Part shown: piece after piece, positions 169 to 1,197 of the stretch
Numbering within the stretch: position 1 is the stretch's first letter
How the letters are laid out: every line of letters begins with the position of its first letter
Source: Escherichia coli
Lineage (GTDB): Bacteria > Pseudomonadota > Gammaproteobacteria > Enterobacterales > Enterobacteriaceae
Length of the DNA stretch: 4,267 nt
Reading direction: 5' to 3' (one strand)
Assembly (NCBI RefSeq): GCF_003334385.1
Contig: NZ_QOWN01000088.1
Program-made: the position numbers and the translations under genes
The notes under the pieces: model-generated
The model's input: the letters and a program-made list of their open reading frames with translations, nothing else
Databases searched by the model: none
Told to the model about the DNA's origin: nothing

Positions 169-1197
169 ATGAACCACTCCTTAAAACCCTGGAACACATT
201 TGGCATTGATCATAATGCTCAGCACATTGTATGTGCCGAAGACGAACAACAATTACTCAATGCCTGGCAGTATGCAACCGCAGAAGGACAACCCGTTCTT
301 ATTCTGGGTGAAGGAAGTAATGTACTTTTTCTGGAGGACTATCGCGGCACGGTGATCATCAACCGGATCAAAGGTATCGAAATTCATGATGAACCTGATG
401 CGTGGTATTTACATGTAGGAGCCGGAGAAAACTGGCATCGTCTGGTAAAATACACTTTGCAGGAAGGTATGCCTGGTCTGGAAAATCTGGCATTAATTCC
501 TGGTTGTGTCGGCTCATCACCTATCCAGAATATTGGTGCTTATGGCGTAGAATTACAGCGAGTTTGCGCTTATGTTGATTCTGTTGAACTGGCGACAGGC
601 AAGCAAGTGCGCTTAACTGCCAAAGAGTGCCGTTTTGGCTATCGCGACAGTATTTTTAAACATGAATACCAGGACCGCTTCGCTATTGTAGCCGTAGGTC
701 TGCGTCTGCCAAAAGAGTGGCAACCTGTACTAACGTATGGTGACTTAACTCGTCTGGATCCTACAACAGTAACGCCACAGCAAGTATTTAATGCGGTGTG
801 TCATATGCGCACCACCAAACTCCCTGATCCAAAAGTGAATGGCAATGCCGGTAGTTTCTTCAAAAACCCTGTTGTATCTGCCGAAACGGCTAAAGCATTA
901 CTGTCACAATTTCCAACAGCACCAAATTACCCCCAGGCGGATGGTTCAGTAAAACTGGCAGCAGGTTGGCTTATCGATCAGTGCCAGCTAAAAGGGATGC
1001 AAATAGGTGGGGCTGCGGTGCACCGTCAACAGGCGTTAGTTCTCATTAATGAAGACAATGCAAAAAGCGAAGATGTTGTACAGCTGGCGCATCATGTAAG
1101 ACAGAAAGTTGGTGAAAAATTTAATGTCTGGCTTGAGCCTGAAGTCCGCTTTATTGGTGCATCAGGTGAAGTGAGCGCAGTGGAGACAATTTCATGA
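169..1197 (+). CDS. murB: UDP-N-acetylenolpyruvoylglucosamine reductase (MurB), peptidoglycan precursor synthesis
   Basis: 342-aa ORF starting ATG 169 with a purine-rich SD (AGGAAAG, 157-163) and TGA stop at 1195-1197. The translation ([21 protein letters not shown]...GEGSNVLF...) is recognised as E. coli MurB, which is 342 aa. Position between rrnB and birA matches the known gene order. Confidence 0.96.

Follow-up and report, generated by a model that had tools for sequence, protein, structure and literature searches.

In Escherichia coli, the start codon of birA, the gene of the biotin ligase and bio operon repressor, overlaps the stop codon of murB, which encodes a peptidoglycan enzyme. 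This raises the question of whether the overlap ties BirA synthesis to the translation of murB, or whether the two genes are simply packed closely on one message. We analyzed a stretch of E. coli DNA of 4267 bases that spans the junction (hereafter, the window). Many complete E. coli chromosomes matched the window at 100% identity, and 5421 of the 5426 complete E. coli genomes contained 80% of it or more. It is the rrnB-terminator/murB/birA/coaA/tRNA/tufB locus of E. coli. Feature positions were obtained from the RefSeq annotation of one genome identical to the window and converted to window coordinates. In that annotation, the 23S and 5S rRNA genes are situated just upstream of the window's murB, with the 5S gene approximately 300 nt from murB. 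The features of the window are as follows.

45-77, plus strand: hairpin and U-run that bound the murB-birA unit upstream (folding 40-85 gives -22.7 kcal/mol, z -5.3, a stem followed by UUUUUGCGUUU)
156-161, plus strand: murB ribosome-binding site AGGAAA, 7 nt ahead of the ATG at 169 (sequence)
169-1197, plus strand: murB, UDP-N-acetylmuramate dehydrogenase, 342 aa, stop codon TGA at 1195-1197 (ORF list, NCBIfam, RefSeq CDS)
1182-1185, plus strand: birA Shine-Dalgarno sequence (SD) GGAG, within murB codons Val338 (GTG) and Glu339 (GAG) (sequence)
1194-1197, plus strand: ATGA, the birA ATG (1194-1196) over the murB TGA (1195-1197), -4 spacing (sequence, ORF list, RefSeq)
1194-2159, plus strand: birA, bifunctional biotin-[acetyl-CoA-carboxylase] ligase/bio operon repressor, 321 aa (ORF list, NCBIfam, PDB, RefSeq CDS)
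2163-2182, both strands: GC-rich hairpin in the birA/coaA gap (terminator-like match on the minus strand; folds)
2188-3138, minus strand: coaA (RefSeq)
3500-3941, plus strand: four tRNA genes (RefSeq)
from 4056, plus strand: tuf, start only (RefSeq)

The two gene products are securely predicted to be MurB and BirA, the latter a group II biotin ligase/repressor, as their matches lie above curated equivalog cutoffs and leave the identities unambiguous. MurB scored 539 bits against NCBIfam NF000755 (cutoff 277) and BirA 654.8 bits against NF008849 (cutoff 474), with the latter model aligned over 1-320 of 320. The BirA domains were those expected from its two functions, the repressor domain (TIGR00122) at residues 6-76 and the ligase domain (TIGR00121) at residues 81-317. 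The position of the birA start matters for any argument about the overlap, and it is fixed at 1194 because BirA translated from there is identical to chain A of PDB 1BIA over residues 1-321. The best BirA cluster representative was a 520-aa protein in which a segment beginning at position 24 matches residues 2-321 of E. coli BirA with 100% identity. Rather than being natural, this protein is probably an engineered fusion found in a public data set.

Downstream of birA, the product of coaA scored 480 bits against TIGR00554. The longest ORF in the coaA frame begins at TTG 3294 on the minus strand (368 aa), versus the RefSeq start at ATG 3138 (316 aa). Alignment to the NCBIfam model began only at residue 9 of the 316-aa product, and a second in-frame Met at that residue (MSIKEQTLM...) could be an alternative start. 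The four tRNAs were identified by ARAGORN and Rfam as Thr-UGU, Tyr-GUA, Gly-UCC and Thr-GGU. They were the only Rfam matches in the window, and the murB/birA junction had none. The 116-nt spacer between tRNA-Tyr and tRNA-Gly (3669-3784) contained a terminator-like hairpin on the minus strand at 3740-3728.

The sequence of the junction (1180-1200) is GTGGAGACAATTTCATGAAGG. In the murB frame, positions 1180-1197 read GTG GAG ACA ATT TCA TGA (Val-Glu-Thr-Ile-Ser-stop), and in the birA frame the codons from 1194 are ATG AAG GAT. The first-pass annotation had placed the birA start over the murB stop in an ATGA, and the sequence, the ORF list and RefSeq all put it at exactly 1194-1197. The two genes are on the same strand, and their start and stop codons share TG, as in the definition of a co-directional NTGA pair with -4 nt spacing. 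A birA SD within the last murB codons, also proposed at that stage, was likewise found: the GGAG is separated from the birA ATG by an 8-nt spacer and is predicted to form an anti-SD duplex of -6.4 kcal/mol with the 3' end of 16S rRNA. This duplex ranked in the best approximately 10% of 20-nt segments across the operon and is stronger than that of the murB ribosome-binding site (-4.3 kcal/mol). Hence the end of murB provides birA with an SD at working distance, one of the features by which pairs coupled by termination-reinitiation are recognized. That the arrangement was known for this locus also held, in that RefSeq annotates the same 4-nt overlap in a region present in 5421 of 5426 complete genomes. 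The annotation was identical in eight further E. coli alleles.

A single ATGA is unremarkable, and we looked at how the junction is maintained among more divergent sequences. The 601-nt stretch at 900-1500 occurs in E. coli as alleles with identity to the window down to 92.5%. Of the eight further alleles compared, five were 601-nt stretches spanning that range of identity. All eight had unaltered GGAG and ATGA, and the sole difference between these motifs was a synonymous change of ACA to ACG. The 900-1500 stretch is unusually diverse for core genes, as 1396 of 5421 genomes had only 90-95% identity to the window. The divergent alleles had 13-25 nt differences per approximately 300 nt in both genes and only 2-7 amino acid differences. 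They look like old or imported allele classes.

A scan across species, with one genome per species, produced 80 Enterobacterales loci whose BirA was 78-99% identical to that of E. coli. In every locus that had upstream DNA (79/79), a long upstream ORF ended 4 nt inside birA, with RTGA as the overlap. It is this retention of the -4 register that is informative, and the overlap is beyond chance. The junction was always RTGA in the 74 complete operons (ATGA in 42, GTGA in 32); the birA start column was ATG or GTG in all 74 species and the position of the overlap never shifted. The birA start toggles between ATG and GTG because the last murB codon changes synonymously (NNA or NNG). The second birA codon was AAR or AGR in 74/74 species, and positions -12 to -9 were GGAG in 65 species, AGAG in seven and TGAG in two. 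Many draft Enterobacterales contigs ended 1.1-1.6 kb upstream of birA, just ahead of murB. Such ends would be expected if assemblies broke at a repeated rRNA operon, which suggests that the adjacency of rrn and murB is widespread in the order.

Constraint on the junction was examined in a codon-aware alignment of 75 operons, made up of the 74 species and the window itself (species are therefore counted out of 74, and codons out of 75). The 3' end of murB (1168-1203) had the lowest ratio of observed to expected synonymous codon entropy in the operon, 0.70 versus a mean of 1.00 (sd 0.08). The Glu codon of the SD was GAG in 75/75 operons, whereas the other 25 conserved Glu columns were 17-74% GAG. 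The Val codon preceding it was GTG in 59 of 67 operons, and the last murB codon ended in A or G only, as an RTG start demands. Both the SD and the overlap are constrained at synonymous sites and are therefore under purifying selection at the nucleotide level.

To gauge the age of the arrangement, we considered seven representatives of BirA clusters with 44-60% identity to E. coli BirA. In six of these (BirA 44-55% identity), murB was directly upstream of birA, with MurB 48-63% identical to that of E. coli, and the genes overlapped, as called, by 4 nt in three cases, 8 nt in two and 13 nt in one. The linkage of murB and birA is therefore old. The exact -4 register, by comparison, is fixed in Enterobacterales and not universal beyond them. 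In the seventh representative (L090, BirA 60% identity), a gene for an MFS transporter (L090 positions 1366-2517) is inserted between murB and birA and overlaps birA by 17 nt as called, and a GGAG is kept 8 nt ahead of the birA ATG. The birA ribosome-binding site has thus outlasted a change of upstream partner. Two of the representatives (L095 and L098, BirA 44-47% identity) had a same-strand gene for a type III pantothenate kinase (Pfam Pan_kinase) after birA, with an overlap of 11-17 nt. In E. coli the neighbor of birA is the convergent type I kinase gene coaA, so that birA adjoins a pantothenate kinase gene of either type in these two relatives and in E. coli.

The strong hairpins around the pair fall at 45-77 and 2163-2182, with none between the genes. 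The upstream hairpin, AGAAGGCCAUCC...GGAUGGCCUUUUU, was missed by the consensus terminator scan, and we take it to be the rrnB distal terminator (rrnB T2), familiar from cloning vectors. A second strong hairpin ahead of murB was detected at 1-21 (GGCGGGCAGGACGCCCGCC, -17.1 kcal/mol, z -3.7). The hairpin at 2163-2182 lies in the 28-nt gap between the convergent birA and coaA genes (2160-2187) and folds well on both the plus strand (-17.2 kcal/mol, z -4.6) and the minus strand (-15.2 kcal/mol, z -4.5), with a good U-run after it only on the coaA (minus) strand. It probably terminates transcription in both directions and marks the downstream end of the murB-birA unit. Between these boundaries, the consensus scans of 169-2159 found no terminator-like site and no promoter-like site on the plus strand.

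Where transcription of the unit begins is less evident. No good sigma-70 match was present in the 90 nt that separate murB from the rrnB terminator, and the best match in 74-168 (TTGCGT-16-TATCGT at 74-101) scored 6.3 and overlapped the U-run of the terminator; the consensus scan was blank there. Transcripts of murB-birA could come from a weak promoter or from rrnB by read-through. Brandis et al. discuss the concatenation of operons in this region (PMC6735719).

These scores also bear on whether birA might be expressed mainly from a promoter of its own inside murB, in which case the overlap would say little about birA expression. Operons of E. coli often contain internal promoters, and weak ones escape consensus scans, a limit also seen in the region ahead of murB itself, which scores just 6.3 in the position weight matrix (PWM) scan. 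However, there was no promoter-like site on the plus strand of 169-1193 in the consensus scan, and the best plus-strand PWM score within murB, 7.8, was below the mean maximum of codon-shuffled murB sequences (9.7 +/- 1.5). Nor did murB have a patch of markedly lowered synonymous diversity outside the SD region and the 5' end, the next lowest value being 0.77 at 964-985. We considered that patch as a promoter and rejected it, as its match (TTGGCT-17-TAAAAG) scored only 5.5 and was located within a conserved MurB motif. Shigella flexneri belongs within the species E. coli, and co-variation of the murB and birA mRNAs in this organism also speaks against a separate birA promoter. In RNA-seq, anaerobiosis changed murB by a log2FC of -2.23 and birA by -1.62, and an fnr mutation shifted both slightly (murB -0.60, birA -0.51) (PMC4229854). 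An origin of most birA mRNA inside murB is improbable on this evidence.

It is very likely that murB and birA are co-transcribed, and we infer a single murB-birA transcript. Co-transcription had been claimed in the first-pass annotation, and it is well supported indirectly by the lack of any intergenic space, the absence of a terminator-like site on the plus strand of 169-2159, the flanking hairpins and the Shigella co-variation. The pair is also the murB-birA unit of EcoCyc/RegulonDB, and the classic papers on the locus are Howard et al. 1985 (Gene 35:321) and Pucci et al. 1992 (J Bacteriol 174:1690). Our literature searches found no transcript map or polarity experiment specific to murB-birA, and the SMRT-Cappable-seq supplements had no birA or murB entry.

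One way in which translation of murB could govern that of birA is through RNA unfolding, in which a hairpin hides the birA start until it is opened by ribosomes translating murB, as in the VII/IX genes of phage f1. The minimum free energy (MFE) fold of the E. coli junction does contain a candidate, with CAAUUUCA (1187-1194) paired to UGAAAUUG (1216-1223), so that the spacer and the first base of the birA AUG are hidden. However, this fold was no better than those of shuffled sequences (z -1.32, with 19 of 200 shuffles equally good), and its 3' arm was unconserved, the Lys/Leu codons being replaced in other genera by Thr/Leu with varied codons. RNAalifold applied to the junction of 37 species returned a consensus structure of 0 pairs. 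Furthermore, a structure profile of 50-nt sliding folds over the 75 operons showed that segments centered from -10 to +40 around the birA start were the least structured in the operon. The mean z of the birA start region was +1.54 at +20 and was positive in 100% of the species. We therefore rejected the hairpin of 1187-1194 and 1216-1223 as a chance fold, and coupling by RNA unfolding is rejected with it as extremely improbable at murB/birA.

The junction presents to ribosomes an open start region with a conserved SD and an exact overlap. The reading we prefer, which is probably correct, is of a two-gene murB-birA unit in which BirA is started at the shared site by a reinitiating or a fresh ribosome. 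One mRNA would be bounded by the rrnB distal terminator upstream and by the hairpin shared with convergent coaA downstream. A ribosome that ends murB at the UGA (1195-1197) would already be positioned on the birA AUG (1194-1196). The GGAG 8 nt ahead, written in the Val-Glu codons of murB, would pair with 16S rRNA and hold or recruit the small subunit. BirA could then be started through termination-reinitiation, by the ribosome that has just ended murB, or by a fresh 30S subunit at the same unstructured site. The expected outcome would be a low and steady supply of BirA, at approximately half the rate of MurB and tied to a housekeeping gene.

Published measurements of protein synthesis and abundance are in line with such an outcome. 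The ribosome-profiling column of Dataset EV6 of Mori et al. 2021 (PMC8144880), which consists of the values of Li et al. 2014 multiplied by mass, gives a synthesis per generation of 228 copies of MurB (10019690/43946) and 131 copies of BirA (5375061/41031). The xTop mass fractions in that study are approximately 1.0e-4 for MurB and 5.2e-5 for BirA, a molar ratio of approximately 1.8. The 1.7:1 ratio of MurB to BirA synthesis fits with coupling and with a shared mRNA on which (re)initiation is efficient, and coupling is not required to explain it.

The main alternative is that the genes are co-transcribed and uncoupled, with a free 30S subunit starting BirA de novo at its own SD and AUG, and with the overlap being no more than compact packing. 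Several features of the junction are in accord with this: the SD duplex of -6.4 kcal/mol exceeds that of murB's own ribosome-binding site, the operon has its least structured part at the birA start across all 75 species, and there is no conserved structure that would occlude it. In addition, the E. coli bioBF pair, also with -4 spacing, initiates de novo (PMC6728339), and the spacing is thought to be frequent partly through the ease with which it evolves (PMC12548453). Against this, Huber et al. 2019, using premature stops and mRNA controls, found four of five native E. coli -4 pairs to be coupled (PMC6728339). The exact -4 register in 79/79 species would also be unneeded for packing alone, and synthesis of MurB and BirA within two-fold of one another fits reinitiation. 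Based on these points, we consider a purely de novo start of birA possible and rather doubtful.

The conserved features by themselves fit reinitiation and de novo initiation equally, because an open region with a moderately strong SD suits either. It is experimental precedent that would favor SD-assisted termination-reinitiation over a de novo start for birA. Three of the pairs studied by Huber et al. were strictly coupled, menDH was coupled to about 60% and bioBF was uncoupled; in the four coupled pairs, reinitiation fell by 60-100% when the SD was removed (PMC6728339). Translational coupling of murB and birA, which the first-pass annotation had also suggested, is thus probable by analogy. 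We lean towards coupling making a measurable contribution to BirA translation, and infer that some share of BirA synthesis would depend on translation of murB. A strict dependence of BirA on murB translation appears unlikely.

For the annotation of the locus, the overlap carries little weight beyond bookkeeping, being a textbook type of -4 junction in one of the best annotated E. coli loci. What the present analysis adds is quantitative, namely that no stretch of the operon is more constrained at synonymous sites than the junction, including the SD in the Val-Glu codons of MurB. The pair offers a clean natural case in which to test reinitiation against de novo initiation. There is also a caution for engineering: in deletions, tags or recoding of birA or murB, the last five murB codons double as the birA ribosome-binding site. 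A more ambitious reading is that translation of murB deliberately sets the dosage of BirA, so as to link the synthesis of lipid to that of peptidoglycan. If this were true, the repression set-point of the biotin operon and the activation of acetyl-CoA carboxylase would track the synthesis of peptidoglycan precursors, which would be a hard-wired link between two arms of envelope growth, membrane lipid and peptidoglycan. Uncoupling of murB and birA would then cause a fitness or envelope defect even at an equal mean level of BirA. The sole point for this reading is the age of the linkage, with the overlap kept to BirA relatives of about 45% identity, and we regard it as very improbable.

Compared with the annotated E. 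coli murB-birA pair (RefSeq/PGAP), the junction in the window is the same locus with the same 4-nt overlap and no difference. The overlap is already known and annotated, and it is of the standard -4 NTGA class with nothing new in kind. Approximately 15% of gene pairs overlap co-directionally in most prokaryote groups (PMC6728339), and NTGA, with its -4 spacing, is by far the commonest spacing of co-directional prokaryote neighbors (Brown and Wade 2025, PMC12548453). The -4 spacing is common partly because three of the four bases of NTGA come with the start codon itself (PMC12548453). In this class, codon 2 of the downstream gene begins with A, as does that of birA in each of the 74 species. 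Within the class, murB-birA resembles the coupled pairs hyfHI, astDB, ydbH/ynbE and menDH in having the same spacing and an SD inside the upstream gene (PMC6728339). It differs from many -4 pairs (PMC10666635) in that MurB and BirA are not parts of a common complex and do not act in a common pathway. The E. coli bioB-bioF pair has a native -4 overlap like that of murB-birA; however, bioF has a very weak SD and is translated independently of bioB (PMC6728339), whereas birA has a conserved GGAG under synonymous constraint. The VII/IX pair of phage f1 also shares the -4 spacing, but there a long hairpin blocks independent initiation (PMC12548453), whereas the murB-birA junction is without conserved structure and is unusually open.
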